From Candidatus Magasanikiibacteriota bacterium (lineage in GTDB: Bacteria; Patescibacteriota; Patescibacteriia; Magasanikbacterales; UBA922), in NCBI GenBank assembly GCA_003510435.1, contig DOMK01000018.1, forward strand, positions 14,121 to 78,120: a DNA stretch of 64,000 nucleotides. Reading direction: 5' to 3'. The notes below the pieces were generated by a model that saw only the letters and a program-made list of their open reading frames with translations, was not told the DNA's origin and made no database searches. The stretch's first letter is position 1. Every line of letters starts with the position of its first letter. Made by a program: the position numbers and the translations under genes. This document shows, piece after piece, positions 11,881 to 63,875 of the stretch.

Positions 11881-11901
11881 TATATAATTAAAAAATGCCT
11901 T

Positions 11902-12340: not shown

Positions 12341-12355
12341 TTGGAGAATAAATAC

Positions 12356-12685
12356 ATGAGCAAAGCCTCCAGACACTACAAAGTAGTACGATTACCTAGA
12401 ACGATGACGCCAAAAGAACTGTCTGAATTTGTAGGGGGAATTAAACCGCCACCAAATTCATCTTCTTACCGCGTAGCTGGCCCAACAGCACTAGCTACTT
12501 GGACAATTTTGGGAGGAGGAAAGCACAATAATACTAAGGTAGTTTTTGGCAGTGGCAATCGCTTTGGTAATCTGAGAGATAGGACAGTAATGTCAAGCAC
12601 TCCATGGAGTGTCCTTCCAACCAGACGAAAGACTGTCAACTGGGCAAAAGGAACGTGTGTCCTTCTTATGTCCTTCATCCATTAG
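12356..12685 (+). CDS. Hypothetical protein (GC-rich cassette gene 2)
   Basis: Met at 12356 preceded by a GGAG Shine-Dalgarno. No recognisable domain. Confidence 0.4.
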   Translation: MSKASRHYKVVRLPRTMTPKELSEFVGGIKPPPNSSSYRVAGPTALATWTILGGGKHNNTKVVFGSGNRFGNLRDRTVMSSTPWSVLPTRRKTVNWAKGTCVLLMSFIH

Positions 12686-13544: not shown

Positions 13545-13576
13545 AGAAGATATAATTAATAATTAATTTTCAATTT

Positions 13577-13617
13577 ATCCCGATTAAATTCGGGATCCCG
13601 TGCTATGTCGGGACAAT
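13577..13617. repeat. Two adjacent palindromic hairpins between rpsF and ssb
   Basis: atcccgattaaattcgggat plus atcccgtgctatgtcgggacaat. The second hairpin recurs at 33443-33465; the first at 12765-12785 and 34802-34820. Confidence 0.5.
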
Positions 13618-13674
13618 TTTCATTTTATAAATATTTTGAAAATTGAAAATTGGTTTTTATAATTTGTTGTATTA

Positions 13675-22761: not shown

Positions 22762-22784
22762 GTGATATAATATTACCAACACAT

Positions 22785-22809
22785 AACACGAGACACATAT
22801 CACGTAACA
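22785..22809 (-). repeat. Interspersed repeat; 25-nt exact copy (reverse orientation) of 59763-59787
   Basis: rc of aacacgagacacatatcacgtaaca equals tgttacgtgatatgtgtctcgtgtt, identical to 59763-59787. Diverged copies at 27214-27250 and 32891-32920. Confidence 0.6.
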
Positions 22810-22845
22810 ATTGATATGTGATATGTGTTATATGATACGTGAATT

Positions 22846-27113: not shown

Positions 27114-27213
27114 ATTTTTATTTTTAAAAATTAATATATATAAACATTATCATTTCAACCAAAAATAGTCAAATAGCACACTTTATAAAAATTAAACTCC
27201 AAAAACATATAAT

Positions 27214-27250
27214 TTGTGTTATGTGGTTCGTGATATGTGATCGTGTTATT
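27214..27250 (+). repeat. Diverged copy of the gtgttaYgtg..gatatgtg interspersed repeat
   Basis: tttgtgttatgtggttcgtgatatgtgatcgtgtt; about 85% identical to 59758-59790. Confidence 0.5.
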
Positions 27251-29060
27251 CAAACAACTTTTCCACTTTCACCCCTGTATAATAATGCTTTAATAATTCT
27301 ACAAAATCAGCCCCTTCATTTTTCGCTCGCAAATTGGCATCGCGCTGACTCATACCCACACCATGACCTAGTATCTTTTTACCTTTGTCATATTCTGCTG
27401 TCACTGGCACTAACCACGGCTTATTGGCTCCACCCCAAACGCTAGAAAAGCTCTTAGTTTTGCCATTACTATTACCAAAATATGGTGTAGTCACGACTTC
27501 ATCATTATAAGTCACAAACACTCCTCGTGTAGCTTCCTGAGCCTCTACGACCATTGGTAAGACTTCTTCGGCTTCATAGCCAAGATAGAGTTGATCATAA
27601 GTATTGGCCACCACATCAAAAAATGGATATTTATTTCTTGAAACATAAACATAATTACGTGCGGCTACCAAATTCGCTTTGATAAATTCAATTGAATCAG
27701 CTCTGCCAACTTCGGCCATACCCTTTACATAATCCTCTATTAACAAATCATTAACAATATACATTTTTTTATCAACTATTCCCTGACGGTACTCCACTGC
27801 CCCACGATATTTATTAAACAATTTATTTGGATCCACCCACTTAGCTACTCGAGTATTCAAATTTGGAATATGAAAAACTGCATTGGGCTTCGTAGTTGGT
27901 TCCAGACGAATAAAATTTTCACTACTAAAATCTAAATCCCCACCTTTAAAACTATATTCACCATCATTATATTTAATAACAACAAATTTTCTTTCTAATA
28001 AAATTCCTTTTAATTCATTACCACTAAATACATTATAATCATCTTCATAAGATCGAAATTGAATAAAATTTGTTTCCGGTGCAGTTATGCCTACTCTTAC
28101 TCTTGGCTCATTTTCCAAACGAATATTATTTACTACACCATTATCTTCTACTTCAGTTTCCAATTCTGATACTTCATATTCATCTGGTGCATCAGCTGTC
28201 ACTGTAACTGGGATGTTAACTTCATCAATGAATTTTCCTTCATCAATCTCTAATTTAAATTTGGCAACATAATCACCTTTTTTGGCTGGGGTACGGAAAT
28301 AAAATGTTTCCCGTAAAAACTTAGCTGGTAAAATCTCTTCTTCTTTTTCAAATACTTTACCACTACTATTCCAAGTTCTATCTGAATAAATTTTATCTTC
28401 ATTAGTCAATTTATATTTATTCCAAGTGTTCTGACCTTCATTTTGATAACCAAGAATAATTTTAATTTGTTCTCCCCCGATAGCTGTCACCGACTTCTTA
28501 CTCAAAATTAATCTTTTAGCGCTATAACTAGAATCATTGACACTAGGCGCTATTTCATCTTCTACTGGTACTTCCACCACTATCTTTTTTGGTACAACTT
28601 TTATTTTAAAATAAAAATAGCCACTCTTTACCCAAGAATAATTTTCTGCAGCCAAATAAAATTTTTCTATATATTCTCCAGTCTTTTCTGGCGCTTGCAA
28701 ATCAATGGTCAGTTCGGCCACTCCACCTGGTTTTACTTGAGCGGATATTTTCCCAGTTTGTTTGCCATTCGTCCAATTTTTGCCTTTAAAAACAGATACT
28801 CGATCTCTTGGCTCCATAGTATAGGCAGAAATAAAACGACTACCAGAAGAATTCCAAGTAGCTGTCCCGGTATTTTTAAATTTTATTACCACGGTCTTCG
28901 TACTACCAGCCTCAATTTCAATTGGGTCAGATACTGACTGAGAGACATATTTGGCAGAATAGGCCTCGTCTTTTATCACTACCTCTGGTTCAACGGCTTT
29001 AGCTGAATTCATTAAAAATAAACTAAATATTATAGCGAAAAATATGGTTTTTTTATTCAT
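27246..29060 (-). CDS. SpoIID/LytB-domain protein with N-terminal signal peptide
   Basis: Signal peptide MNKKTIFFAIIFSLFLMNSAKA. C-terminus GHGVGMSQ...HYYTGVKVEKL is a SpoIID/LytB signature. Confidence 0.8.
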   Translation of the reverse strand: MNKKTIFFAIIFSLFLMNSAKAVEPEVVIKDEAYSAKYVSQSVSDPIEIEAGSTKTVVIKFKNTGTATWNSSGSRFISAYTMEPRDRVSVFKGKNWTNGKQTGKISAQVKPGGVAELTIDLQAPEKTGEYIEKFYLAAENYSWVKSGYFYFKIKVVPKKIVVEVPVEDEIAPSVNDSSYSAKRLILSKKSVTAIGGEQIKIILGYQNEGQNTWNKYKLTNEDKIYSDRTWNSSGKVFEKEEEILPAKFLRETFYFRTPAKKGDYVAKFKLEIDEGKFIDEVNIPVTVTADAPDEYEVSELETEVEDNGVVNNIRLENEPRVRVGITAPETNFIQFRSYEDDYNVFSGNELKGILLERKFVVIKYNDGEYSFKGGDLDFSSENFIRLEPTTKPNAVFHIPNLNTRVAKWVDPNKLFNKYRGAVEYRQGIVDKKMYIVNDLLIEDYVKGMAEVGRADSIEFIKANLVAARNYVYVSRNKYPFFDVVANTYDQLYLGYEAEEVLPMVVEAQEATRGVFVTYNDEVVTTPYFGNSNGKTKSFSSVWGGANKPWLVPVTAEYDKGKKILGHGVGMSQRDANLRAKNEGADFVELLKHYYTGVKVEKLFE

Positions 29061-31799: not shown

Positions 31800-32700
31800 A
31801 TTAAAACCAGAAACAATTGGAACGATTTTTATTTTACTCGGCAACATCTTGTACGGAGCGTTTATTGTAATCGTAAATCAAACCACCAAACAAATTCAGC
31901 CATTATTTTTTGCTTCAATTTCTGTTCTTATCGCCAGTTTGACTACTCTAGTCTATGCTTTTTACAAGGGTAAATTAAAAGAACTCAAAATACGCAAGAG
32001 TTATTATCCAATTTTAATGACCACATTATTTATTGTAATAATTCCTTTCACTTTATTTTTTATTGGGGCTAGCAAAACATCTGGTATCAATTCTTCTTTA
32101 CTCCTCTTATCTGAAATCATTTTTACTGTCATTATCACCCCATTTTTTGGCGAAACAACTTCTCTTTATAAAATTCTTGGCGCGGGTGGAATTTTTTTAG
32201 GAGCAATTTTTATTTTATATAATAATAATTTTAAAATAAATATTGGTGACATTCTTATTATATTAAGCACCTTAACATTCCCCTTAGGAAATTTTTATGC
32301 CAAAAAAGCCCTTAATTTAGTTTCTTCAGAAATAATTCTTTTCATCAGGTTTTTATTAGGTGGTCTAGTTATTGGTACTCTTTCCTTAATGTTTGAACCC
32401 ACAAACTTAATCAAAAATTCAATTGTAAATCATTGGCCAATCATTTTATTAAATGGCATATTACTATTAAGTGTTAGCAAAATGTTTTATTATGAGGCTC
32501 TGAAAAGAATGGACATCTCAAAAACCATTTCACTTGGTATGACCTTTCCCATATATAGTTTGTTAATTCTAACTATATTTTTTAAAGAAGAAATAACTCC
32601 ATACAAATGGATTGGTATAGCTGTAATGCTAATTGGTGTATATTTCACCATAAAAAGAAAATCTGTTGATCCAAAACTAACCAAATATGCTCACAACTAA
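31792..32700 (+). CDS. DMT-superfamily (EamA-like) transporter
   Basis: 10 TM segments, two EamA-like halves. Confidence 0.7.
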   Translation: MFKLKPETIGTIFILLGNILYGAFIVIVNQTTKQIQPLFFASISVLIASLTTLVYAFYKGKLKELKIRKSYYPILMTTLFIVIIPFTLFFIGASKTSGINSSLLLLSEIIFTVIITPFFGETTSLYKILGAGGIFLGAIFILYNNNFKINIGDILIILSTLTFPLGNFYAKKALNLVSSEIILFIRFLLGGLVIGTLSLMFEPTNLIKNSIVNHWPIILLNGILLLSVSKMFYYEALKRMDISKTISLGMTFPIYSLLILTIFFKEEITPYKWIGIAVMLIGVYFTIKRKSVDPKLTKYAHN

Positions 32701-34174
32701 CACAATACTGTTTACTGTTTACTGTTTACTGTTTACTTATCTGGCCTGGAAAAATTTTCCCTGGGGACTTTATCTTTTCTTTTTTCTTTTACCAACCTAT
32801 TTAATTAGATTTAATATTGGCCCATTACCTACTACCTTATTGGAAGTTATGCTGTGGATAATTACCATAATCTGGCTAATAAAATATCATTCACATATCA
32901 TATACCACATAACACATACCACAAAACAAAATAAAATATTATTTATTGGAATCGCCGTATTTCTATTATCCGCGACAGTATCTATCTTTACTTCCACAGA
33001 CGTTCGTTCGGCACTCGGAGAATGGAAAGCCTTTTATATTGAACCAATAATATTATTTTTAATTTTGATAACCACTTTTAACCCTAAAAATTACCCACCG
33101 GAACAGACTCAACTGGATCAAAAGATCAAAAGATCAAAAGATCAATTTTCTGTCCGATCTTCCGATCTTCCGATCTTCCGATCTTCGATTATCAACCACA
33201 TAATCTTCGCTCTAATTCTATCCGGACTAATTACTTCAGTATTAGCAATATATCAACACTTCACCGGCTGGATGGTACCATACGCCTTTTGGCAAAACCA
33301 AAACACATTTCGTGTCACAGCTTGGTATGGTTTTCCCAACGCGGTCGGATTATTTTTGACACCACTTTTTCCGTTAGCAATATATGGTCTGAAAGAAAGC
33401 ATAAAAAATAAATCTTTCAATCTTTTCCCGACAGAGTACGGGATCCCGTATTATATCGGGACAATCTTTCAATCTTTAATAAAAATTATTCTTTATTCCT
33501 TATTCCTTATTTTATCTCCACTAGCAATACTATATTCAAAAGGTACCGGTCCACTCATTGGACTTGTCGCTGGCATTGGCATATTATTACTATTTTACAA
33601 AAAAACTCGCTGGCCAACTGTTATTTTAAGTCTAATTTGCCTTTCAAGCCTTTTTAGCTTTTCCAGCCTTTCAAGCCTGAAGAATGAGGTTCTTCTCCAA
33701 GATCGCTCTGGTCAAATTCGTTTATCTATTTGGAACGAGACTTGGCAATTTCTTAAAGACAACCCTATTACTGGCGCTGGTCTAGCTTCCTATCAAGAAA
33801 AAATCAAACCTTATCACACAACAGTTAATGGTGAAGGCATAGAAATTTTTCATCATCCACACAATATATTTTTGACTATGTGGATTAATCTGGGTCTATT
33901 AGGTTTAGCAAGTTTTATTGGAATTTTAGTTTCCTTATTCCTTATTCCCTGCCTCACCGGCAGGCAGGCTTATTCCTTATTCAAAAAAAATGAAAACATC
34001 CCAATCATACAATACTTTCTAACTGCTTCTTTAACAACGATAATTGTCACTGGCTTAGTCGACAGTCCATATATCAAAAACGATCTCTCAATTTTATTCT
34101 GGCTTTTGCCAGCTTTATTAATCATGAATTCGTCCAAATCACAATCAGTGAAATCTTTAAATAAATCAACGTAA
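32687..34174 (+). CDS. O-antigen ligase / Wzy_C family membrane protein
   Basis: HHPHNIFLTMWINLGLLGL motif (H.HN....E.G..G of O-antigen ligases); many TM segments. Contains several in-frame repeat elements. Confidence 0.7.
   Translation: MLTTNTILFTVYCLLFTYLAWKNFPWGLYLFFFLLPTYLIRFNIGPLPTTLLEVMLWIITIIWLIKYHSHIIYHITHTTKQNKILFIGIAVFLLSATVSIFTSTDVRSALGEWKAFYIEPIILFLILITTFNPKNYPPEQTQLDQKIKRSKDQFSVRSSDLPIFRSSIINHIIFALILSGLITSVLAIYQHFTGWMVPYAFWQNQNTFRVTAWYGFPNAVGLFLTPLFPLAIYGLKESIKNKSFNLFPTEYGIPYYIGTIFQSLIKIILYSLFLILSPLAILYSKGTGPLIGLVAGIGILLLFYKKTRWPTVILSLICLSSLFSFSSLSSLKNEVLLQDRSGQIRLSIWNETWQFLKDNPITGAGLASYQEKIKPYHTTVNGEGIEIFHHPHNIFLTMWINLGLLGLASFIGILVSLFLIPCLTGRQAYSLFKKNENIPIIQYFLTASLTTIIVTGLVDSPYIKNDLSILFWLLPALLIMNSSKSQSVKSLNKST
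32706..32733 (+). repeat. Tandem heptanucleotide repeat (tactgtt) x4 in codons 7-16 of the Wzy ligase gene
   Basis: tactgtttactgtttactgtttactgtt; unit length is not a multiple of 3. Confidence 0.7.
32891..32920 (-). repeat. In-CDS copy of the gtgttatgtgg..gatatgtga interspersed repeat
   Basis: rc is ggtatgtgttatgtggtatatgatatgtga; 22 of 25 positions match 27219-27243. Confidence 0.45.
33116..33186 (+). repeat. Inverted pair of 8-nt tandem repeat arrays, (gatcaaaa)x3.5 then (cgatcttc)x4, inside the Wzy ligase CDS
   Basis: Period-8 arrays that are near reverse complements of each other; eight GATC sites in 71 nt. Confidence 0.7.
33426..33465 (+). repeat. Two REP-like hairpins inserted in frame in the Wzy ligase CDS
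   Basis: tcccgacagagtacggga plus atcccgtattatatcgggacaat; the second is about 88% identical to 13595-13617. Confidence 0.5.
33948..33968 (+). repeat. GC-rich palindrome cctgcctcaccggcaggcagg flanked by direct repeats cttattccttattc
   Basis: Related to the 12793-12810 palindrome; flanks ttccttattccttattc / cttattccttattc. Confidence 0.4.
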
Positions 34175-40948: not shown

Positions 40949-41550
40949 AACTAATTCCTACAATTATCCAAGATGAAAGTACTGACGTGGTGCTGATGTT
41001 AGGTTATATGAATGATGAGTCACTCAAAAAAACTAAAAAGACAAAAAAAGTCTGGTTTTATAGTCGCTCAAAAAAACGTCTCTGGCTTAAAGGTGAAACC
41101 AGTAAAAATTATTTATTTGTAAAAAGCATAGACTTTGATTGTGACAAAGATACCATTCTTATTAAAGTAAAACCCGCTGGACCAACCTGCCACACTGGTA
41201 ATTATTCTTGTTTTAAAAAAAAGCCTGAGATAAATCCCTTGGTTGAATTGTTTTCCACAATAGAAGATAGAAAAAAGAATCTACCTAAAAATTCTTACAC
41301 CACCAGTTTATTTAAAGGTGGTATAAATAAAATTATTGGTAAAGTAATGGAAGAAACTACTGAGGTAATTAATGCCTCTATCCGAGAAACAAAAAAACGT
41401 TTAATAGAAGAAACGGTCGATTTACTTTACCACCTTTTTGTTTTATTAAGTAAAAAAAATATTAAATTGGAAGATGTTTTTAAGGAGATTGAAAAACGCA
41501 GAAACAAAAAATCCCGGGCTTCATCTGCGACTACGCCCGGCAAGCCCTAA
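40945..41550 (+). CDS. hisI: Bifunctional phosphoribosyl-AMP cyclohydrolase / phosphoribosyl-ATP pyrophosphatase
   Basis: HisI motif CHTGNYSCF followed by a HisE-like C-terminus. The last ~13 codons are supplied by repeat element R1. Confidence 0.85.
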
Positions 41551-41607
41551 CATCTTTTCTAAAAAAAGACTGACCTGCCCAGCGTAGCTTTAGCGAAGCC
41601 TGGGTTT
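41507..41607 (+). repeat. ~100-nt structured repeat element R1 (second copy R2 at 53926-54035)
   Basis: Conserved blocks gactacgcccggcaagc and tgcccagcgtagctttagcgaRgcYgggtt around a variable loop; outer stem cccgggcttc/gaagcctggg. Overlaps the hisI 3' end. Confidence 0.6.
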
Positions 41608-41705: not shown

Positions 41706-42329
41706 TTAGATTGCCAGACACTCTGCGACGATATAGCGATTCATCACCGCCATACCATCGACCATCTCACCCTCCTCAATTCTGTGTGTCTCTACAATCT
41801 TAAAACTACCCCAAAGAACATAATCACGCAAAGAATTCTCTGAAAAGTAGAAATCTTCACGCTTACCCCCGTTACCATTCCCATTTAAGATTTTCACGGG
41901 AAATGGCTCATCACCTTCGGCCACTCTAACAGCCAAAAGCAATGGAGCTCCAAGACACATAACTCTACGCAATTCTCGTACAGATGCCATAATCTCTTGT
42001 ACACTATGCATGTTATGCAATACTCTCCAAGAGAGTACTGCACTAAAATAATCATCTGGAAAAGGAAGCTGAGAAAATCTTTGTACCTCAACAAAATTTT
42101 CCAAACCAATAGTAGCTTGACGAGCCCATGGTCCGTCTACTGCGACAACTTCTCTACCGAGAGATCGCAGAACTGATAGATTTCGCCCTCTCCATGCTCC
42201 CCAGTCCAGAACTGGGTTGCGTTCTGAACTCGTAAGGTGGTGGAGCAGGAATTCTTGACCGGAACCAGCCACGAACCCACTAGGTTCATAGCCGATTTCA
42301 TACTTACTCCCTCCGTGCCACTTATCCAT
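41706..42329 (-). CDS. Class I SAM-dependent methyltransferase-like protein (GC-rich island)
   Basis: Degenerate motif I VLDWGAWRGRN, acidic post-I VAVD, motif II-like region. About 48% GC. Strong Shine-Dalgarno AAGGGAGGAAAAAG. Confidence 0.5.
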   Translation of the reverse strand: MDKWHGGSKYEIGYEPSGFVAGSGQEFLLHHLTSSERNPVLDWGAWRGRNLSVLRSLGREVVAVDGPWARQATIGLENFVEVQRFSQLPFPDDYFSAVLSWRVLHNMHSVQEIMASVRELRRVMCLGAPLLLAVRVAEGDEPFPVKILNGNGNGGKREDFYFSENSLRDYVLWGSFKIVETHRIEEGEMVDGMAVMNRYIVAECLAI

Positions 42330-42414: not shown

Positions 42415-44199
42415 CTAACTATATTTTTTTCGCAAAATTTTTCCTGCGCCTACTTCATTTTTTAATTTTAAGTAAGCTTCATCCAACGGCACATTAGCTT
42501 GCGAACCAGGAGCAAAACCACAATCCGGATTTAAAATAATTCTGTTCGGTGCCACATACTGCAAAGCTTTTTCTACTCGTGTCACAATTTCTTCTGGTGT
42601 ATCAATGTGTTCAAATCTGCACTCCACACAACCAAGACCTACTTTAAATTTTTCTGGTAAATTTTTTAAGGCGCTAAAATCACCGGCAACTGGGATGCTA
42701 TATTCCAACACAAATTGATCTACATCAATGGCGCTAATGGCAGAAATAATAGCCTCATAGCCACCTTTACCAATCCAACCTTGTCTACCTTTATTGCGCC
42801 GACATAAATGTAATGCTGTTTCTATTCCGTCAATTCCTTTCACAACTTCATTAACTACTTGACAGGCATAATTTAACTCTTTTTTCGGGTCAGAAAATTG
42901 AGTTCGTAATTCTTTATCAACAAATAGACAAATATGAGGATCATCAATTTGCACAATATTAGCACCAGCCTCCCGTAATAAAATAATTTCATTGCGAAGT
43001 ATAGGAATAAGGGCTTCCACAAAAGCCTCACGAGTTGGATAGGCTTTTATAGATTTTTTTTCATCCCACAATCGTTGACCAAGAAGATAAGGCGACGGCA
43101 GGCACACTTTAATTTTTTTAATAGTATGTAATTTCAAAAATTTTGCTTCACGTGCAAAAAACCCAGGTTTATCATAAACCAATTTTTCTTCCACCGTATG
43201 CCATGAACGGCCATCACTTGAATTAAAATAATGTTTAAAACCAGAAGCTATATTGGCTATTACTCCCACATAAGATTTGCGTCGCCATTCTCCATCAGAA
43301 ATTACATCCAAACCAGCCTGCTCTTGCAGTGCTATGGCATAAGCCACTGCCTTATCCAAAATAGGAGAAAAAGGATCACCCTCATTTAGAATAACATCTT
43401 GAACAAATTGTGGTCGCGGCAAACTACCTACAACACTTGCTGGAAATAGCTGTGAGGCAGGTTTCCAAAATTTTTGAGCATAAGCATAATCTTCCAGAGT
43501 ATCAATTTCAATATAGTCACCATGAGTAGTAACAAAATTAATTTTTACACCTTGCTGAACCAAATAATTTAAATAATGTAAAAGATAAGCACGATTTAGC
43601 GGAATGTTTTTTTCAAACTGAAAATTTTTTGGAAGGTTACAAAAATATTCTTTAAATATTTTAGCACCGGCTCGAGAAAATTTAGCCAAGCCAATAAATT
43701 CTCCTGTTGCCAAATCATCTGGAATTGTGCGGCTAAGAGTAGTAATTAGTTCGCCATCCGCTGTTACTTTTTCTGCATCAATGGAGGGGTGAAGACTACG
43801 ATGTACATACCGAGCACGCCAATCAGTATCTACTGCTATGGTAATATCCGCCGGGCTAGCCAATAGTTTTTTAACAATCTCTGGTTTATACAGAATATCC
43901 GAATATGAGCAGATAAAACCATCGCCCATATCATTTATCGCGTAAAAGAGCGATTTTAAAATATTATTATTTTCCCAATTAGTATTATGTCGAAAAGTAA
44001 AATAAGGATATTGTTTTCTTACAACGTCAATTAAATAACCCCCAATAAAAACAATATCCCGTAGTTCTTTTGCTTGATGCGCTTCCAAAATCCAATCTAA
44101 TATCCTTTTATTGTGAACACGAGTAAAAGTTTTTGGTTCAGTATTAGTTAGATGCTCCAACCGCTTACCACGGCCAGCACCTATAATAATTGTTTTCAT
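42415..44199 (-). CDS. Fusion protein: N-terminal sugar-phosphate nucleotidyltransferase plus C-terminal MetE-like (cobalamin-independent methionine synthase family) Zn-dependent domain
   Basis: N-terminus MKTIIIGAGRGKRLEHLT (G-rich NTP-transferase loop). C-terminus VGSLPRP, VQIDDPHI, LHLCRRN, LEYSIP, NPDCGF align with the MetE C-terminal IGSFPQT, IQIDE, HMCY, ENS, NPDCGL Zn-site motifs. Confidence 0.75.
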   Translation of the reverse strand: MKTIIIGAGRGKRLEHLTNTEPKTFTRVHNKRILDWILEAHQAKELRDIVFIGGYLIDVVRKQYPYFTFRHNTNWENNNILKSLFYAINDMGDGFICSYSDILYKPEIVKKLLASPADITIAVDTDWRARYVHRSLHPSIDAEKVTADGELITTLSRTIPDDLATGEFIGLAKFSRAGAKIFKEYFCNLPKNFQFEKNIPLNRAYLLHYLNYLVQQGVKINFVTTHGDYIEIDTLEDYAYAQKFWKPASQLFPASVVGSLPRPQFVQDVILNEGDPFSPILDKAVAYAIALQEQAGLDVISDGEWRRKSYVGVIANIASGFKHYFNSSDGRSWHTVEEKLVYDKPGFFAREAKFLKLHTIKKIKVCLPSPYLLGQRLWDEKKSIKAYPTREAFVEALIPILRNEIILLREAGANIVQIDDPHICLFVDKELRTQFSDPKKELNYACQVVNEVVKGIDGIETALHLCRRNKGRQGWIGKGGYEAIISAISAIDVDQFVLEYSIPVAGDFSALKNLPEKFKVGLGCVECRFEHIDTPEEIVTRVEKALQYVAPNRIILNPDCGFAPGSQANVPLDEAYLKLKNEVGAGKILRKKYS

Positions 44200-44311: not shown

Positions 44312-44535
44312 ATTTAGTTTGCAATAAAATTCCATAAAAAAACTTCTAACCATAGGTAGAAGTAGTATATAAAACATCTTCCCCTTATGGGTTGGAATTA
44401 CCACCTTGTCTTAAAGATAGGTTGGTAGAGAGTCATTGGGCCAATTCCCTCGTCTCTTCTTGATATAAATTAATTGTCTGTATTTAGATTATCACCACAT
44501 CATTAAATCGTCAAACAACGACTGTGGATAACTAA

Positions 44536-53881: not shown

Positions 53882-53925
53882 CATTGATTACACTGATTGT
53901 GAGTTGAGATTACACAGATTAAAAC

Positions 53926-54035
53926 AAAAAACCCCGGTCTTTGTCTATGACTACGCCCGGCAAGCTAGATAATCTTTATATCAAAGAATTCAGCTTGCCC
54001 AGCGTAGCTTTAGCGAGGCTGGGGTTTTATTTTTG
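53926..54035 (+). repeat. ~100-nt structured repeat element R2 (copy of R1); also a terminator with T-run
   Basis: accccggtctttgtctatgactacgcccggcaagc...ttgcccagcgtagctttagcgaggctggggttttatttttg. Stem positions maintained relative to R1 by compensatory and wobble changes. Confidence 0.6.
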
Positions 54036-55234: not shown

Positions 55235-55328
55235 AAAATATTTATTAATATTATGGAAGTATCATAACAAATTAAATAAAAAAACTCAATCTTATACAGA
55301 CTGAGCCTTAAAATAAAAAGTAGAGAAA

Positions 55329-56348
55329 TTATGGATTATTTTTTAATGCTCTAACTGCAAACTCATCGGCATATTGTTCTTTTGGTAAAGACCGATAAGC
55401 AATATTTTGATCATCCACCAATCTAGCCACATCCACCACACCATCTACTACATATTTTTCCCGTAATACGTCACTGTCTTTAACTGCTTGCTCAATTAAG
55501 CCATTCTCAATCATATTATTCAGTGTTGCTGGATTCACATTTGGTAAAGGCAGACTGGCCATTTCCACTCGATTTTTTTGTTTCCAAGCTTCACTTGGAG
55601 ATAATTCAAGATCATTATTATTTTTAAAATTTATTATATAATCATGAGCATGACCAAGTTCGTGTGCAAAAATAAAAGATTGTAATATTTCGGCCGTGAC
55701 CTCTTCTGCTTTCAAACCCAATAATCCAGCTACAATTTCTACTGATTTTTTTCTAGAAACTAATAACTTTCTATAATGTTCTTCATTACCGGGTACAACA
55801 TAAATAGTCGGAGCAGAATCAAACCCTGAAGGATCAGCAAAATAACCACCAGTATGTGACAAAGTTTCTCCAGACTTGGGTTTACCTAATCTTACTTCCA
55901 CTTGACGTAATTCTGGATTGGCTTGTAATATTGTAGCCCACATATTTCCCAAATGTTCTCCTCCTTCTTCAACAATTTTCCTATCAGAAATATCTTTGAT
56001 TTCTTGTTTTCGTTTTTCAATATTTAATAATAAATTTGAAAAATTAATATCATCACCACATAATGTTGAAAATTCCGACATTTGTATATCCAAAACACGA
56101 ATAATATCCTTTACTTTTTCAATTGCAAAACTATCCATTGAATCAACGTGAGTAAACAAATCATCTAATTTTTGTGAAACTAAAATAAACTTGCGTTCTC
56201 GGGTAAGCGCATTGACAATTTCTTTCCTAAACAAATCCAAATCAGTCTCTCTTTTTTTGAGGTCGCCTCCAGTACTACTAGCATCTAAAATTTTTCCATC
56301 TCCTACTGTTAATGACATATAATTTAATAGACATAACATCAATATCAT
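55329..56348 (-). CDS. Hypothetical protein with HExxH zinc-metallopeptidase-like motif
   Basis: FIFAHELGHAHDYI; no further family assignment. Confidence 0.5.
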   Translation of the reverse strand: MILMLCLLNYMSLTVGDGKILDASSTGGDLKKRETDLDLFRKEIVNALTRERKFILVSQKLDDLFTHVDSMDSFAIEKVKDIIRVLDIQMSEFSTLCGDDINFSNLLLNIEKRKQEIKDISDRKIVEEGGEHLGNMWATILQANPELRQVEVRLGKPKSGETLSHTGGYFADPSGFDSAPTIYVVPGNEEHYRKLLVSRKKSVEIVAGLLGLKAEEVTAEILQSFIFAHELGHAHDYIINFKNNNDLELSPSEAWKQKNRVEMASLPLPNVNPATLNNMIENGLIEQAVKDSDVLREKYVVDGVVDVARLVDDQNIAYRSLPKEQYADEFAVRALKNNP

Positions 56349-56394
56349 AACAAATTAAATAAAAAAACTCAATCTGATATAAATTGAGCTTCTG

Positions 56395-56478
56395 TGCCCG
56401 AGGCGGGAATCGAACCCGCACTCTATTGCTAGAACAGGATTTTAAGTCCTGCGCGTCTACCAATTTCGCCACCCGGGC
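56395..56478 (-). tRNA. tRNA-Leu (anticodon UAA), 84 nt, long variable arm, no encoded CCA
   Basis: rc is GCCCGGGTGGCGAAATTGGTAGACGCGCAGGACTTAAAATCCTGTTCTAGCAATAGAGTGCGGGTTCGATTCCCGCCTCGGGCA. 7-bp acceptor stem, GGTTCGATTCC T-arm, anticodon loop CUUAAAA. Confidence 0.9.
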
Positions 56479-57284: not shown

Positions 57285-57836
57285 TTAAAATAATGAAGTA
57301 AATTCAAATTTTTTCAAATCACTCACTGTAAGAAGACGTGATCTATTTACATACTTTTGCATACCCAAACTAGGATTGTGAGAAAAACCAATATATTCTA
57401 TTTCTTTATCAAGATGACGAATTTTACTTATAGCTGGAATTAAATCTGTATCAGAAGAAATTAGAATAGCAGTATCATACAAATCATCATAAGCGCCTAC
57501 TAATAAATCTACTGCCAATTTTACATCAACACCTTTTTCATGATAAACACCACCACTTTTCATCATATAACCATTCTTTACAACAAAATTTTGATTTGAA
57601 GATTGCAAGTGCGATAATAATCTTTGTTGATTTTTTCTTAATTCTTGACCTTTTTCATTACCTTCTTCTGCCCTAATAATACCAATATAATAACGACAGG
57701 AAATGATTTCTCTTCCTCCAGCCAACCATTTTGATAAACTACGATAATCAAATTTAACTAAATTGGACAAACCCAATTCTTTTACTTTGTGATAAAAATT
57801 ACTTCCATCTATATAAATTGCAACTCTATTATTCAT
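57285..57836 (-). CDS. NYN-domain (LabA-like) protein
   Basis: VAIYIDGSNFYH and a D-rich core typical of NYN/PIN-like nucleases. Confidence 0.8.
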   Translation of the reverse strand: MNNRVAIYIDGSNFYHKVKELGLSNLVKFDYRSLSKWLAGGREIISCRYYIGIIRAEEGNEKGQELRKNQQRLLSHLQSSNQNFVVKNGYMMKSGGVYHEKGVDVKLAVDLLVGAYDDLYDTAILISSDTDLIPAISKIRHLDKEIEYIGFSHNPSLGMQKYVNRSRLLTVSDLKKFEFTSLF

Positions 57837-57842
57837 AAAATA

Positions 57843-57893
57843 AAAAACCCACCGTGTGTCTTCTCAAGGAAGACTCCAGAGCGGGTGTTTTTA
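57843..57893 (-). terminator. Rho-independent terminator of TrmB paralog 2 (bidirectional)
   Basis: Minus strand reads aaaaacacccgctctggagtcttccttgagaagacacacggtgggttttttatt: nested hairpin followed by a U-run. Confidence 0.55.
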
Positions 57894-57985
57894 GCTAAAG
57901 TAATTATACGATAGTCTGTAGTTTTTGTCAATAGCTATAGTGGACAGACTAAAACCGCTCCTGGATATATTAAACCACAAAATTT

Positions 57986-58714
57986 TTACTCTGGCAATGT
58001 ATCCCAAAGCATTTCAAAAACCGACCGAAAAACATCCACCATAGCTGGCACAGCAATCACTACGGCCAAAGATGATAACTCTGGACTAACCACCAAAATT
58101 TTATCTTTAAAAATATCAATTGAGCTTTTGAATTTATATTTTGCTGGTAGATATTTATAACTGCGCAGTAATTTTATATCAGGAGGATTTATCTTCTTTG
58201 ATTCAGCAGTAATTAAAAGCTTGGTATGAATGCCGGCTTGCGCGCGATCTTTACGATACCGCACAAACCACTCAGCATCTAACTTTTCCCAATTGGGCAC
58301 ACTACCAATAACATAATAAGATTTATTTTTAAAATCATTCAAAACGCCGGTATAAAATTTTTTTAATTCATGCACGGTCTCAATAAAACGCAAACCTCCC
58401 ATTTGTAATTTCTTTTTTTCCATGGATTCAAGCACGGGCACTAAATTATTAAAAGCGTCTAATTTTTTTTCAAAATAATCTGCCACGCGCTGTGGTTTTT
58501 CCGCATAAAAAAATTGTTTGCTTTTGCGGTAATAAGTTGTCACAAAACCTTTTTCTGCCAATGATTTTAAAAGAGCATAAACCGTAGTGCGTTTTATGCC
58601 AACACTTTTGGCAACCGCACTGGCAATTGAGCCACCAATCTTCAGCAAACCTAAGTACACTTCTGCTTCGTGTTCATTTAATCCTAATTCTTTTAAGGCT
58701 GTTTTTTCTTGCAT
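57986..58714 (-). CDS. TrmB-family HTH transcriptional regulator (paralog 2)
   Basis: LGLNEHEAEVYLGLLKIGGSIASAVAKSVGIKRTTVYALLKSLAEKGFV; paralogous to 11104-11880. Confidence 0.7.
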   Translation of the reverse strand: MQEKTALKELGLNEHEAEVYLGLLKIGGSIASAVAKSVGIKRTTVYALLKSLAEKGFVTTYYRKSKQFFYAEKPQRVADYFEKKLDAFNNLVPVLESMEKKKLQMGGLRFIETVHELKKFYTGVLNDFKNKSYYVIGSVPNWEKLDAEWFVRYRKDRAQAGIHTKLLITAESKKINPPDIKLLRSYKYLPAKYKFKSSIDIFKDKILVVSPELSSLAVVIAVPAMVDVFRSVFEMLWDTLPE

Positions 58715-58722
58715 ATTTTGTT

Positions 58723-58739
58723 GTCAAAATTATTAGACA
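58723..58739. promoter_or_regulatory. Palindrome tgtcaaaattattagaca (TGTC-N10-GACA) 9 nt upstream of the TrmB paralog 2 start
   Basis: Same architecture as tgtctaaaatatttagaca upstream of paralog 1. Confidence 0.45.
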
Positions 58740-58886
58740 CTTTTTACTGTTAATAATATTATAGCTTATTTTAGCTATTTTGTCAAATATAGCTGTTTAA
58801 AATGGTTGACGATAAAGCCAAATAACATTAAAATAACTAGTCAAACTATAGTGGTTTGATAACGATCTTTACAAGGAGAAACGAAA

Positions 58887-59237
58887 ATGATCTCAAACGC
58901 GGTTCATACAGATGACCTGAGCGGAGTCGACTGGACGCTTCTTCACCAGGTTCAATTTGGTTTTGACCCCTTTTTCCCCCATGGCGCTTCACTTTTTTTT
59001 GACTACCCAGGAGTACAATGCAACGGGCAATGGACAACCAACATAGTCATTGAAAAATATAGACTAGGTTGGACTGCTGGAATGCTCCAAGGGAAAGAAA
59101 AACCAGATTTCATTCAAGGACTAGAGAAGCTGTCTGGTAAAACTTCTTCAAGCAGAGGAGAACTTAAAAGGCTCAACATAGATCGTGCCTGGCGTGTTTG
59201 GACGTTTCATGTTTTCTACGAACCAGGAAGGGGATAG
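58887..59237 (+). CDS. Hypothetical protein (GC-rich cassette gene 1, 116 aa)
   Basis: AAGGAGA Shine-Dalgarno; about 50% GC; no known domain. Confidence 0.5.
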   Translation: MISNAVHTDDLSGVDWTLLHQVQFGFDPFFPHGASLFFDYPGVQCNGQWTTNIVIEKYRLGWTAGMLQGKEKPDFIQGLEKLSGKTSSSRGELKRLNIDRAWRVWTFHVFYEPGRG

Positions 59238-59238
59238 T

Positions 59239-59625
59239 ATGAAGAAGAACACTGTTCTCGATCCTGAACAGGTCAAAGCCGTCTTTATAGACTGTCTCTT
59301 TCAAGATGGCGAGGATACCACCGACCACATCGGAATCAAAGGCATCACCAAGGACGTCTGGTTTCACTCCAAACGTCTCCAAAGCCACAAGGCCGAGATC
59401 GAAGTGATGCTGGGAGAACTCCCTGACGAATTCAAAAAGTCCGGTGGTGGCTGGTCATTCCTCAAGGCGGACAAAGACAGACACGGCCACCAGTGGACCA
59501 TGCTCCACCAACGTGTAGAACAGCTCTTTATGCTCGGCATGGGAATTGGTAAGGTTCAGTACCAGATGCCGAAAGAAGTATGGCCAGCTCTGCCAGGTGG
59601 CATGCCATACTACATCATCAATTAG
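59239..59625 (+). CDS. Hypothetical protein (GC-rich cassette gene 2, 128 aa)
   Basis: GGAAGGGGA Shine-Dalgarno, start 2 nt after the upstream stop; about 52% GC. Confidence 0.5.
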   Translation: MKKNTVLDPEQVKAVFIDCLFQDGEDTTDHIGIKGITKDVWFHSKRLQSHKAEIEVMLGELPDEFKKSGGGWSFLKADKDRHGHQWTMLHQRVEQLFMLGMGIGKVQYQMPKEVWPALPGGMPYYIIN

Positions 59626-59723
59626 TTTGTCTTTCCATCCTAAACGCTCTTTCATCGTGTGCCGGACACTTCAAACCGGCACTCCCTCAAAGTATTTTAC
59701 TTTATTGAATATTTTGAGAAAAA

Positions 59724-59756
59724 CAAAATCCGCTGATCAGGCAGATTTTATTTTTT
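59724..59756 (+). terminator. Terminator of the GC-rich cassette
   Basis: aaaatccgctgatcaggcagattttattttttg; imperfect palindrome around tgatca plus T-run. An additional 7-bp hairpin gtgccgg/ccggcac lies at 59659-59682. Confidence 0.5.
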
Positions 59757-59760
59757 GTTA

Positions 59761-59790
59761 TGTGTTACGTGATATGTGTCTCGTGTTTTA
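59761..59790 (+). repeat. Interspersed repeat copy (tgttacgtgatatgtgtctcgtgtt)
   Basis: Exact 25-nt reverse-complement match to 22785-22809. Confidence 0.6.
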
Positions 59791-62700
59791 TGAACACCCA
59801 AGCGACTCCCCACAATTCAAACACTTATAACACGCCCCATTCCTCACAGTCACATGCCCACAAGTAGGACAAGCCGGCGCATCCCCCATCATATTTTTCA
59901 AAGCTTCATCAGAGGCATTGAGTGGTTTATTTCCCAAACTTGGTAAAACTTCTTGTTTTTCTGCGAGCATAACTTCTTCACCATCTTCCATTTCTATTTT
60001 GGTCTCAACCTCTACTTTGGTTTCTAGTGTCATGGTTTCTTGGGCTGGACTATGTTCGGCTAGTTTGGCCAAATTTTCAAATTTATTTTTTTGAATTCCT
60101 TTTGGTGGCACTTGGACAAAATCTGTTCTACCCAGATATTCCATACCCAACACACGGAAAACAAAATCAATAATAGAATTGCAAGACTTGATATTGGGAT
60201 GATCAGTAAATCCGGCCGGAGCAAAATTGGTAAACAAGAAATTTTCTACATATTTTTCTAATGGCACACCGTATTGCAAACCCATAGAGACTGATATCGC
60301 AAACATGTTGAGAAGGGATCTAACTGTTGCACCCTCCTTATACATATCAATAAAAATCTCAGCTACTTTTCCATCTGGATATTCTCCAGTACGGAGCCAA
60401 ATTTGTTGATTACCAACTTTGGCCGCTACTGTAATACCACTCCGTTTGGCTGGAAGTCTTCTTTTTTCACCATGCAGATAAACCCGGCGTTCAGCCACCT
60501 GACCATCACGAGTATATGATTCCATTGGCGTATGAATACCAACATGATTAGAAAGAATTTCACTCGCTTGTCTTACCGCATCTTCTACATTATCAGTGTT
60601 AATCATTTTTGAGACTTGCAATACTTCTTCTTCTGTAATGACTGGCTTTCTCTCTTCAGCCATTACTTTCACCTCAATCTCCGTGTCCTCCTTACTTTCC
60701 GTGTCCTCCGTGTTTTTCTTATCACCTTTATTTTTGGAACTGGTTGAAAGTGGTTGACTTAGTTTGGATCCATCACGATATAGAGCCACCGCTTTTAGAC
60801 CAAGACGCCAGGATTCTTCATAAGCAAATTTTACATCTTCCAATGTGGCATCATTGGGCATGTTGATAGTTTTGGAAATTGCCCCTGATAAAAATGGCTG
60901 TACCGCCGACATCATTCTTACATGACCCATATAATGGATATATCGTTTACCTTTCTTGCCATTTTTATTGGCCGTATCAAACACGGGATAATCTTCTATT
61001 TTCAAATGTGGCGCGCCTTCAATTGTCATGGTACCGCACACATATTGGTTAGCCTCTTCAATTTCACTTTCAGAAAAACCAAGGGCAATAAGCATACTAA
61101 AATTTGGATCATTGTATTGACTTGGGGCAAATCCAACTCGCTTCATACAATCTTCACCGAGTGTCCAAACATTAAAAGCAAATTTAATTTCAAATGCACC
61201 TTTGAGAGCTTTGTTAACCGCTTCAATATCTTCATCATTAAAACCTTTGGCCTTTAAACTAGCTTCGTTAACATGGGGAGCATTTTTAATATCAGCTGTT
61301 CCACGCATGTAGTTAATAACATCAATTACTTCTTGTTCATTATATTTTAGATTTTTTAAAGCCAAAGGTACGGCTTCATTGGCAATGCGGAAATATCCCC
61401 CACCAGCCAATTTTTTAAATTTCACCAAAGCAAAATCTGGTTCTACACCAGTTGTGGCACAGTCCATAAGCAAACCAATTGTACCAGTTGGTGCCAGCAA
61501 TGTAGTTTGGGCATTTCTATAACCATATTTTTCTCCCATAGCCAAAGCCTCATTCCAACTTTCCCTGGCTGCAGCGACTAAATAGGCGGGAGCAAATTCT
61601 GGATTAATGCCTTTTGGTTTAATTACCATTTTTTCATATTCACTTTCTTCAGCATTGAAAGCTGCTCGGCGATGATTACGAATTACGCGCAACATTTCAG
61701 ACCGATTAAATTCAAATTTTGGAAATGTTCCCAAGAGTCTAGCCAATTCTGCGCTAGTCTTATAACTCTCGGCTGTCATAAGAGCAGTCACTGAAGCCGT
61801 AAAAGCATAAGCATCTTCTGATTCATAAGGAATGCCACTCATCATTAATACTGAACCAACATTGGCATAACCCAAACCAAGAGTACGAAAATCATAACTA
61901 CCTTGGGCAATTTCTTTGCTTGGGAATTGAGCCATGAGAATACTAATTTCCAAAACTGTTGTCACTACTCTGGTCGCATGTCTAAAATCTTCTACTAAAA
62001 ATTCTTTGGTATCAGTATTAAAAAATTTTACAAGGTTGAATGATGCCAAATTGCAAGCTGTGTTATCAATAAACATGTATTCACTGCAAGGATTGGAAGC
62101 ATTAATACGACCAGACTCTGGACAAGTATGCCAGTCATTGATTGTCCCATCATACTGTACACCTGGATCAGCACACGCCCAAGCCGCAAAAGCAATTTGA
62201 TCCCACAGAGCTTGCGCTTTCAAAATCTTGCAAGTACTACCATCTACGCGCCAAGTCAAATTCCATGAACCATCATTTTTTACGGCTTCCATAAACTTAT
62301 GAGCCACGCGCACGGAATTATTAGAATTTTGTCCAGACACAGTACCATAGGCTTCACCTTCATAATCAGCGGAATAGCCAGCCGCAATCAAAGCGGCGAC
62401 TTTCTTTTCTTCATTCACTTTCCAATTTATAAATTGTTCAATATCTGGGTGATCAATATCCAATGTCACCATCTTGGCTGCGCGCCGAGTCGTACCACCG
62501 GACTTTATTGCCCCAGCGGCTCGGTCGCCAATTCTAAGCCAGCTCATGAGACCAGAAGATTTGCCACCACCAGACAATGGTTCACCGTTTCCCCGCAGTC
62601 CAGAAAAATTAGTCCCTGTCCCAGAACCATATTTAAATAATCTGGCTTCCCGTACCCAGAGATCCATAATACCACCTTCATTTACCAAGTCATCGGAAAC

Positions 62701-63348
62701 TGATTGGATAAAACAAGCATGTGGCTGAGGATGAGTATAAGCATCTTTTGATCTAGTCATCACCCCAGTATCTGGATCAACGTAATAATGACCTTGGGAA
62801 CTACTATTAATACCATAAGCCCAATTCAAACCTGTGTTGAACCATTGGGGTGAGTTTGGTGCCATCATTTGTTTTAGAAGCATGACCACGAGCTCATCAT
62901 AAAAAATCTCTGCATCTTCCTGGCTAGCAAAATAGCCATACTTTTCTCCCCAATAACGCCAAGTACCAGCCAGGCGATGCATGGTTTGTTTGACGCTGGT
63001 TTCGGGCCCAAGCACGGGCGACCCATCAGCGTTCAACTTTGACATACCATTGTTATCATATTGAGGTACGCCAGTTTTACGAAAATATTTTTGCGCAATA
63101 ATATCAGTCGCCACTTGTGACCAACCAGCCGGAATTTCAATATCCTTCATTTCAAACACGACTGTACCATCTGGTTCGCGAATTACTGATTGGCGTTTTT
63201 CATAAACTACACTATCAAACGGACTCTCATTGTCTTTACTAAAAACCCGCTTAAAACGCAAACCAAATTCAGGATTATATTTGAATGCCACATCAAGTTC
63301 TTGCCCAAAGTGGATACCTTGGATCAATTTGGAATCAGTTGGTCCCAT
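59788..63348 (-). CDS. nrdJ: Class II (adenosylcobalamin-dependent) ribonucleotide reductase
   Basis: 1186 aa; conserved RNR barrel blocks (NPCSE, ISKTINMP); C-terminal Zn-ribbon tail CPTCG...CYKCLNCG typical of NrdJ. Confidence 0.9.
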   Translation of the reverse strand: MGPTDSKLIQGIHFGQELDVAFKYNPEFGLRFKRVFSKDNESPFDSVVYEKRQSVIREPDGTVVFEMKDIEIPAGWSQVATDIIAQKYFRKTGVPQYDNNGMSKLNADGSPVLGPETSVKQTMHRLAGTWRYWGEKYGYFASQEDAEIFYDELVVMLLKQMMAPNSPQWFNTGLNWAYGINSSSQGHYYVDPDTGVMTRSKDAYTHPQPHACFIQSVSDDLVNEGGIMDLWVREARLFKYGSGTGTNFSGLRGNGEPLSGGGKSSGLMSWLRIGDRAAGAIKSGGTTRRAAKMVTLDIDHPDIEQFINWKVNEEKKVAALIAAGYSADYEGEAYGTVSGQNSNNSVRVAHKFMEAVKNDGSWNLTWRVDGSTCKILKAQALWDQIAFAAWACADPGVQYDGTINDWHTCPESGRINASNPCSEYMFIDNTACNLASFNLVKFFNTDTKEFLVEDFRHATRVVTTVLEISILMAQFPSKEIAQGSYDFRTLGLGYANVGSVLMMSGIPYESEDAYAFTASVTALMTAESYKTSAELARLLGTFPKFEFNRSEMLRVIRNHRRAAFNAEESEYEKMVIKPKGINPEFAPAYLVAAARESWNEALAMGEKYGYRNAQTTLLAPTGTIGLLMDCATTGVEPDFALVKFKKLAGGGYFRIANEAVPLALKNLKYNEQEVIDVINYMRGTADIKNAPHVNEASLKAKGFNDEDIEAVNKALKGAFEIKFAFNVWTLGEDCMKRVGFAPSQYNDPNFSMLIALGFSESEIEEANQYVCGTMTIEGAPHLKIEDYPVFDTANKNGKKGKRYIHYMGHVRMMSAVQPFLSGAISKTINMPNDATLEDVKFAYEESWRLGLKAVALYRDGSKLSQPLSTSSKNKGDKKNTEDTESKEDTEIEVKVMAEERKPVITEEEVLQVSKMINTDNVEDAVRQASEILSNHVGIHTPMESYTRDGQVAERRVYLHGEKRRLPAKRSGITVAAKVGNQQIWLRTGEYPDGKVAEIFIDMYKEGATVRSLLNMFAISVSMGLQYGVPLEKYVENFLFTNFAPAGFTDHPNIKSCNSIIDFVFRVLGMEYLGRTDFVQVPPKGIQKNKFENLAKLAEHSPAQETMTLETKVEVETKIEMEDGEEVMLAEKQEVLPSLGNKPLNASDEALKNMMGDAPACPTCGHVTVRNGACYKCLNCGESLGCS

Positions 63349-63549
63349 AAATAAAGAGATTAGAAGTTAGTGGCTAGTAAGATAAATTACCAGTTATTAA
63401 TTTCCAATTTTTACAGATTAGCGAGCTACCATTTTATCACTATTTTCTCAAACCTGCAAAGGAATTTTATCCCCTTATAATCAACAGGTGATGGGGATAA
63501 AAAAACGCCCTAATTTACTTCAATGGCGCTTGTACCCCTAGCAATCAAA

Positions 63550-63598
63550 CTACTATATATAGTGTTTCAAATTAGTTTCAAACCACAATAGGTTGTGT
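63550..63598. promoter_or_regulatory. Two candidate NrdR boxes upstream of nrdJ
   Basis: ctactatatatagtgt (63550-63565, 14/16 to acaCwAtATaTwGtgt) and ccacaataggttgtgt (63583-63598, about 12/16); centres about 33 bp apart. Confidence 0.35.
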
Positions 63599-63875
63599 TT
63601 ATGACAAGCATTAACAATTATACCACATTAAAAATACCTCGCCAAATATGACTACAAAATTTAAATTTTGGCTAGACTTAGTTAAGAATTGAAATTGTAC
63701 TGGAGTAGTATGAGTTAGTTATCCACATGTCTCACATAATCACTAAAACACCTAAACACTTAAACACAAAAATATAACAAAAAAAACACCAATTTTAATC
63801 CACCCAAACCTATTGACAAAAGTGTCAAAATATGATAAAGTGCCTTAACTTTAATATTAAACTAATCAATAAGCT

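Follow-up and report, generated by a model that had tools for sequence, protein, structure and literature searches.

Small accessory loci such as the one reported here can be measured against several described systems. Islands acquired by horizontal gene transfer are reported to be common in Patescibacteria and to make up as much as 13% of genome length, with hundreds of islands as well as individually transferred genes (PMC12455944). In pSM19035, the ribbon-helix-helix (RHH) protein omega/ParB binds heptad operator/centromere arrays, in which the unit 5'-WATCACW-3' is repeated at least four times contiguously in direct or inverted orientation (PMC9499535). Further points of comparison are the gene cassettes of integrons, the accessory or 'moron' genes of phages and the Thermococcales regulators TrmB and TrmBL1. 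The locus we analysed lies at positions 57986–59790 of a 64,000-nt stretch of DNA (hereafter the window; 34.7% GC) from contig DOMK01000018.1 of a Candidatus Magasanikiibacteriota bacterium. Here, a gene for a TrmB-like regulator (57986–58714, minus strand, 242 aa, Pfam PF01978) faces two small open reading frames (ORFs), ORF A (58887–59237, plus strand, 116 aa) and ORF B (59239–59625, plus strand, 128 aa), which are convergent with a class II-type ribonucleotide reductase (RNR) gene (59788–63348, minus strand). We consider it moderately probable that the region is a horizontally acquired accessory-gene islet in a variable slot between the RNR gene and the TrmB-like regulator, and of the readings compared, ordinary horizontal gene gain has the best support, rather than a mobile unit bounded by repeats. 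As in the Patescibacteria islands described before, compositionally deviant, lineage-specific genes stand between conserved core genes, but the islet differs from them in comprising only two genes on ~0.9 kb, in being free of mobility genes and in its position right behind a conserved divergent promoter.

In the course of events that we propose, the regulator gene would have been inherited vertically together with ~95 nt of control DNA containing its own promoter, a candidate operator and the −35 element of a divergent promoter. Directly downstream of the latter, ORF A and ORF B would then have been inserted, bringing along their own leader and ribosome-binding sites, and would now be transcribed from the host promoter as far as a terminator common with the RNR gene, possibly under the control of the TrmB-like protein. 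ORF B would come from a family that circulates in phages and is scattered as a single gene in members of the Candidate Phyla Radiation (CPR) and other bacteria. A 25-nt repeat close to the terminator would be unrelated to the islet and part of a genome-specific family of 7-bp tandem arrays. Seen like this, the locus would be a small, clean example of gene gain in streamlined CPR genomes, in which a phage-family gene and an orphan have come to lie behind a regulator-linked promoter.

The connection to phages is provided by ORF B, of which residues 11–127 align end to end with positions 7–127 of the 129-position profile phrog_26039 (E=1.3e-29). The initial annotation had seen no recognisable domain in either of the two proteins, which is correct for Pfam, NCBIfam and PADLOC, where neither ORF A nor ORF B found a match, but does not extend to the phage profile matched by ORF B. 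We found at least 281 homologs of ORF B at 50–70% identity, with 63 genome loci and at least 165 IMG/VR viral contigs represented. The family is also present in 19 GenBank records of cultured phages, mostly large ones, and is annotated as hypothetical in every one of them; examples are the phages Variovorax V45v66 (57% identity), Klebsiella Miami and Xanthomonas XacN1 as well as Caulobacter Bertelyvirus, Stenotrophomonas DLP_5 and Salmonella Arash. In both phages that were inspected, DLP_5 and Arash, the homolog is found among small accessory genes, and in CPR genomes it is a solitary gene with a different context each time. DCLF, GGGGWSF and LPGGMPY are invariant motifs of the family; the last two, together with the conserved residues Cys19, Cys78 and His90, are candidate functional sites. 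The AlphaFold (AF2) model of ORF B is confident, with a predicted local distance difference test (pLDDT) score of 94, and a Foldseek search with it against the PDB returned nothing significant. Judged by sequence and genomic context, the family is widespread and phage-associated, and we would guess ORF B to be a small accessory protein of the phage 'moron' type that binds nucleic acids or interacts with the host. Its likeness to such genes lies in the end-to-end profile match and in homologs that are found between small accessory genes in large phages and stand alone in bacterial chromosomes; it differs from them in that there is no prophage around ORF B here and in that CPR copies are systematically GC-richer than their genomes. 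One homolog, located on a 411.6-kb viral contig (IMG/VR UViG 3300033489_000001; L006/L072 in our set of loci), has unusual residues in common with the copy in the window, namely VWFH and AD in place of AC.

The base composition of ORF B deviates from that of its surroundings, with a GC content of 0.50 and a GC content at third codon positions (GC3) of 0.63 compared to GC3 values of 0.14–0.35 in neighbouring host genes. A GC content of 50–52% had originally been assigned to both ORFs; against the window value of 0.347 this figure applies to ORF B only, ORF A having 0.45. Across the family, copies in CPR genomes exceed their flanks by 10.8 GC points on average (29 of 36 by more than 5 points), whereas viral copies do so by just 1.7 points (p = 9e-13). 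Likewise, GC3 of the CPR copies (L001–L040) reaches up to 0.88 at a flank GC of ~0.4, while the viral copies (L072–L151) match their contigs. The GC excess of the CPR copies supports a presumed foreign origin of ORF B.

That the slot itself is variable can be seen from the corresponding loci of relatives, which we turned so that TrmB is on the plus strand. They repeatedly show the frame RNR ... TrmB – Cob adenosyltransferase, with a filling that varies. In L152 and L153 (TrmB 80% identical), the RNR gene is followed by an 84-aa ORF with a ParE toxin and then by GC-rich ORFs of 70 and 82 aa that are divergent from TrmB, and L154 (82%) has a GC-rich 152-aa ORF between an aminotransferase gene and TrmB, again divergent from the latter. 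L155 (74%) carries RNR with only an ABC transporter and an aminotransferase gene on the divergent side and Cob adenosyltransferase after TrmB, and in L156 (65%) PolA is followed by ORFs of 164 and 36 aa at 62% GC. Among 80 further metagenome loci, the aminotransferase family lies upstream of TrmB in ~22 and is the immediate divergent neighbour in about half. The small ORFs at the divergent position are nearly all unrelated to each other, to ORF A and to ORF B, and the latter two are absent from the syntenic loci of the close relatives (L152–L156). The view that the GC-rich ORFs are lineage-specific additions beside the TrmB-like gene is thereby borne out, as relatives have other, often GC-rich, small ORFs in this place. 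Variation extends to the other TrmB flank, where an NYN-domain gene (57285–57931) is inserted between the TrmB-like gene and the Cob adenosyltransferase gene in this genome only; L154 and L155 are without it. This NYN-domain gene is AT-rich (GC 0.28, GC3 0.14) and has a perfect TTGACA-17-TATAAT promoter, and a 9-mer, CTATAGTGG, is common to this promoter (57934) and the leader of ORF A (58847). Furthermore, relatives have different CPR-type repeats after their RNR genes.

We aligned the TrmB upstream regions of 12 genomes and found a conserved core of ~95 nt, which reads GTCAAyCATT..GACAG..TTGACAAAATAGCT..TATAAT..AGTGTC-N10-GACAAC-ATG. Its conservation stops at GTCAA, which on the opposite strand is the −35 element (TTGAC) of the divergent promoter; no element of the host control region is conserved past it. 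All 12 genomes have an invariant GTCAA(C), the sequence beyond it is unalignable and every relative has a different neighbour there. In a consensus scan, the promoter of the TrmB-like gene, TTGACA-17-TATAAT (58758–58786, minus strand), scores 12/12 and both of its hexamers are conserved across orthologous loci; the divergent promoter-like site ahead of ORF A and ORF B, TTGACG-17-TAAAAT (58806–58834, plus strand), scores 10/12. The window, L154 and L155 have the −35 hexamer TTGACG and a near-identical spacer in common and diverge thereafter. An inverted repeat, GTGTC-N10-GACAAC on the TrmB strand (58720–58740), adjoins the TrmB start codon, is conserved in the 12-genome alignment and can be proposed as a candidate autoregulatory operator. 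A second candidate operator, or alternatively a leader hairpin, is the palindrome GTCAAAC-N7-GTTTGAt (58840–58860), which is situated in the ORF A leader between the −10 element and the Shine-Dalgarno site; it also precedes a different cargo gene in L152 and resembles a box upstream of the RNR gene at 63578–63595. Both Shine-Dalgarno sites reported initially can be read in the sequence, AAGGAGA at 58873–58879 for ORF A and GGAAGGGGA at 59226–59234 for ORF B. ORF A and ORF B are thus probably read from a host promoter inside the conserved control DNA of the regulator, a location that makes TrmB dependence plausible, and it is a reasonable inference that the TrmB-like protein may control both ORFs. 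The region upstream of the RNR gene (63545–63600) contains two palindromes, CTACTATATATAGTGT and CCACAATAGGTTGTG, ~32 bp apart, which are putative NrdR boxes. L152 has a similar palindrome pair upstream of its RNR gene, and the second box of the window together with its flank (TCAAACCACAATAGGTTG) equals the ORF A leader palindrome at 16/18 positions.

The sharp end of conservation also invites a more far-reaching explanation, in which the TrmB control region is a selected promoter-capture site where unrelated foreign ORFs repeatedly integrate after the divergent promoter, so that it would act like an integron without integrase and place new genes under one regulator. It would account for the different, often GC-rich cargo at one and the same junction in the window, L152, L154, L156 and L159–L172, for conservation ending at the −35 element, for the TTGACG hexamer and spacer that the window has in common with L154 and L155 ahead of the point of divergence, and for the leader palindrome that precedes different cargo in the window and in L152. 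Nevertheless, no significant enrichment of GC-rich islands was seen on the divergent side, where they occur in 7/11 close relatives compared to 1/8 on the downstream side (p = 0.059), or, over all loci, in 16/68 compared to 10/54 (p = 0.66). In addition, the other side of TrmB is variable too, as seen from the NYN insertion, turnover of gene order is to be expected in CPR genomes at 60–80% protein identity anyway, and no recombinase or recombination site, be it attI or attC, was found at the locus, attC not having been formally searched for. We therefore regard a selected capture site as unlikely, and the junction beside TrmB is not a proven insertion hotspot. Compared to integron gene cassettes, the locus indeed presents unrelated ORFs that have no promoter of their own and follow a resident promoter at one junction, but there is no integrase among its genes, only one or two genes are present, and site-specific recombination is without evidence. 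Similarly small is the chance we would give to the extended idea that the TrmB control region serves as a recurrent promoter-capture site across CPR lineages without an integrase, combined with an ongoing supply of genes from a phage or host pool of higher GC content; if true, the GC-rich codons of the ORF B family in AT-rich CPR genomes would point to such a continuing flow into these epibiotic bacteria.

ORF A, the upstream gene of the islet, found only itself among 5.8e9 clustered proteins, and a full HMMER scan of 1.84e9 representatives added two weak matches, both of them translated tandem-repeat junk. Viral relatives of ORF A were not found either, nor was any ORF A-like sequence upstream of ORF B homologs. 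We also considered ORF A as a degenerate copy of the sequence preceding ORF B homologs and rejected this, as blastn and tblastx found nothing. By these searches ORF A appears to be a true, lineage-specific orphan. The chance of an open frame as long as ORF A is ~0.0014, and four features argue for a real gene, namely this length, the codon-position GC pattern (GC1>GC2>GC3), a strong Shine-Dalgarno site and the coupling to ORF B; the GC3 of ORF A is 0.40. A single nucleotide lies between the stop of ORF A and the start of ORF B, and ORF B is translationally coupled to ORF A. A single-sequence AF2 model of ORF A was uninformative (pLDDT 34). Two small, translationally coupled genes, one from a phage-associated family, could also form a toxin-antitoxin, abortive-infection or anti-defence pair, all the more as a ParE-type toxin pair occupies the same slot in L152. 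Such a function is quite improbable given that neither protein has a PADLOC, Pfam or NCBIfam match, that the Foldseek search of the PDB remained without significant result, that ORF B is solitary in nearly all other genomes and that ORF A, being an orphan, leaves no conserved system.

Several observations weigh against the reading of the region as a horizontally acquired islet. The CPR copies of ORF B are 30–50% diverged in protein yet still GC-rich at third positions, which recent transfer followed by amelioration does not obviously explain. At two positions that are nearly invariant in the family, the copy in the window has a different residue (P44S and C78D), and it may be under relaxed constraint. 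ORF A and ORF B differ in GC3 (0.40 and 0.63) and hence may have been acquired separately. Neither a donor nor an integration mechanism or target-site duplication could be identified, promoters and operators are assigned from consensus matches combined with phylogenetic footprinting, and the distribution of GC-rich islands around TrmB described above counts on the same side. The retained GC3 of the diverged CPR copies would fit an old, vertically inherited gene, or one whose GC-richness reflects selection on codon usage or mRNA, without any foreign origin. This we hold to be very improbable, in view of a genomic context that is different in every genome examined, the absence of ORF B from the syntenic loci of close relatives and the abundance of the family in phages, in which gene and contig agree in GC content. 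Horizontal gain of ORF B from a phage-associated family remains the reading we prefer.

On the other side of the promoter region, the TrmB-like regulator matches PF01978 with its residues 7–70 (E=5e-16, 58.8 bits at a cut-off of 25.6) and aligns with the TrmB structure 3qph of the PDB at profile positions 4–144 (E=1.8e-5), i.e. over the N-terminal ~140 residues only. The TrmB_C sugar-binding domain gave no match at E<=0.1, and the NCBIfam equivalog level was not reached, with 25–38 bits against cut-offs of 500–650, again at the N-terminus only. Taken together, the absent TrmB_C and the scores below the cut-offs point to a bacterial clade (CPR) of TrmB-like regulators with a predicted C-terminal domain of its own (~150 aa). 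The regulator resembles Thermococcales TrmB and TrmBL1 in its N-terminal winged-helix domain and the helix following it, as well as in adjoining a divergent promoter with palindromic candidate operators, but differs from them in the lack of a detectable TrmB_C and in scores far below the equivalog cut-offs. We found no literature on TrmB in Patescibacteria. Its 276 homologs (56–92% identity) belong to Magasanik-, Uhr-, Kerfeld- and Liptonbacteria, and the RNR ... TrmB – Cob adenosyltransferase synteny is kept in genomes without ORF A and ORF B. By this distribution, the TrmB-like gene is best viewed as a conserved core regulator of Patescibacteria and not as cargo.

This bears directly on the interpretation given at first, according to which a TrmB paralog, two GC-rich ORFs and a terminal repeat make up one modular, possibly mobile, cassette that is present twice in the window. 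The adjacent position of ORF A and ORF B and their divergence from the TrmB gene were confirmed by the ORF calls, and there is indeed a second unit, in which a TrmB-like gene (TrmB1, 11104–11943, minus strand) is divergent from two GC-rich ORFs (12074–12340 and 12341–12685; GC 0.46 and 0.44). This pairing of a TrmB-like gene with a GC-rich ORF pair, seen twice, speaks for a cassette, as does the recurrence of the 25-nt repeat after another GC-rich island of the window (island 2; the second unit forms island 1). The supposed mirroring of the two units, however, does not go beyond their layout. All that they have in common is the regulator, with 24% identity over the full length, and their cargo proteins are unrelated. 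The TrmB gene is a syntenic core gene that also occurs without ORF A and ORF B and hence no part of a cassette unit, ORF A is without homologs, and ORF B homologs are not linked to TrmB genes, since a TrmB-like gene was present within the fetched flank in 1/151 loci, ~3.7 kb away. Together with the repeat data below, the cassette model is already largely refuted, and we rate it as extremely improbable. TrmB1-like matches in the fetched loci were 30–35% identical paralogs only, and no viral relatives were found for the proteins of islands 1 and 2. The start of TrmB1 is probably at 11847 (MQIERLL) rather than at 11943. For the ORF at 12341–12685 (plus strand), which has a TTG start, a GC2 > GC1 > GC3 pattern and overlapping antisense ORFs, the called frame may not be the real gene.

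Downstream of ORF B, RNA folds confirmed the hairpin and terminator that had been annotated. Two hairpins at 59659–59682 (GTGCCGG...CCGGCAC) and 59686–59718 (plus strand) are followed at 59719–59756 by a bidirectional intrinsic terminator with a hairpin (59719–59755) and a U-run on each strand, which is common to ORF B (plus) and the RNR gene (minus). Compared to shuffled controls, the folds of the region have z-scores of −4.1 (plus strand) and −3.3 (minus strand); the terminator itself folds better on the minus strand. The 25-nt repeat was reproduced exactly at both positions previously given, 59763–59787 (plus) and 22785–22809 (minus), i.e. 2 matches at 0.00 expected. It is composed of four tandem heptamers NNNYGTG (CACRNNN on the opposite strand), namely TTACGTG ATATGTG TCTCGTG, with TTATGTG before them. 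The pattern YGTGN3YGTGN3YGTG, with one mismatch allowed, has 14 matches in the window at 0.45 expected, and these fall into four loci with arrays of 4–5 contiguous units. The first array (22780–22841) has 4 units abutting 4 inverted ones and ends 4 nt before the start codon of a pilM-like gene, the second (27210–27245) abuts the stop codon of the gene at 27246–29060, and the third (32892–32930) lies inside the ORF at 32687–34174. The fourth (TTATGTG TTACGTG ATATGTG TCTCGTG, 59754–59792, plus strand) contains the 25-mer and overlaps the RNR stop codon (59788–59790). As this array is situated between the RNR stop and the terminator, with its better fold on the minus strand, we assign it to the 3' untranslated region (UTR) of the RNR gene rather than to the transcript of ORF A and ORF B.

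The repeat had been taken for a cassette boundary, an assignment that the arrays do not sustain. Two of the four array loci are away from GC-rich islands, one of them inside an ORF, so that the repeat occurs equally often off the islands, and the two at islands are within chance by our own estimate (p ~0.2, n=4). The stretch 57986–59750, and with it the proximal end of the islet, has no array, and neither has island 1. A role of the arrays as transposon ends bordering the islands was considered as well and rejected, as neither island has a partner array on its other side. The heptamer arrays are real and genome-specific, but, with no partner arrays, with arrays away from islands and with a copy in the RNR 3' UTR, beyond the terminator, they are no marker of cassette boundaries. 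The 156 other loci retrieved by then contained none, and viral contigs gave 30 matches, about a third of them in metagenome-assembled genomes of giant viruses, with no evident link to the locus. With the pSM19035 omega/ParB arrays they have in common the 7-bp unit with a CAC core, at least four contiguous copies, direct and inverted orientation (22780–22841) and, in some cases, a position at promoter regions. However, the consensus here is NNNYGTG/CACRNNN, so that only the CAC core is common to both, and the arrays are chromosomal, with one copy located in a 3' UTR and another within an ORF. A cognate RHH protein was not identified here, no search for an RHH gene having been run, and we treat the likeness to RHH/omega operators as a lead only. 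The arrays may be worth following up, as may the phrog_26039 family of ORF B, which is widespread, well folded and compositionally distinct in CPR genomes; on present evidence neither changes current understanding.

The integrity of the locus was checked in other assemblies. Our look-up of ORF A took in 10 contigs carrying it, and in each of the six places compared, taken from several groundwater samples, the locus was identical (100%); an assembly chimera is thereby ruled out. The genes called at the locus are Cob adenosyltransferase, NYN, TrmB, ORF A, ORF B and RNR, with no recombinase among them. The window contains four short GC-rich islands in total, near 12.0–12.7, 22.1–22.6, 41.7–42.3 and 58.9–59.6 kb. 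Non-coding RNA as the content of these islands was rejected on the basis of an Rfam scan of the window at gathering thresholds, which gave a SAM riboswitch and a tRNA-Leu only, and a permissive scan of 57850–59850 yielded sub-threshold, terminator-like matches only.

Other features of the window are of interest in their own right. The ORF at 32687–34174 (plus strand), which encodes a membrane-like protein of 495 aa, contains perfect short tandem repeats with units that are not multiples of 3 (TACTGTT x4.6, GATCAAAA x3.8 and TCCGATCT x4.2, besides TTATTCC, GCCTTTCAA and the CAC heptamers), and may be slippage-prone or phase-variable. The tRNA-Leu gene (56394–56478, minus strand) is followed by two 47-nt direct repeats (55260–55306 and 56343–56389) that are 91% identical and each contain a terminator-like hairpin; the pair flanks a single 339-aa gene with a HELGH metallopeptidase motif, an arrangement that looks like a one-gene insertion which duplicated the tRNA-distal sequence. 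The SAM riboswitch (44371–44469, minus strand, 64.5 bits) is located upstream of a 594-aa ORF (42415–44199, minus strand), which adjoins GC-rich island 3, a 207-aa methyltransferase gene (41706–42329). Finally, the window holds an interspersed, bipartite GC-rich repeat of ~100 nt (41502–41607 and 53922–54027, 80–91% identical) and a palindromic CCCGA...TCGGG element at 13575–13620 and 33423–33468.

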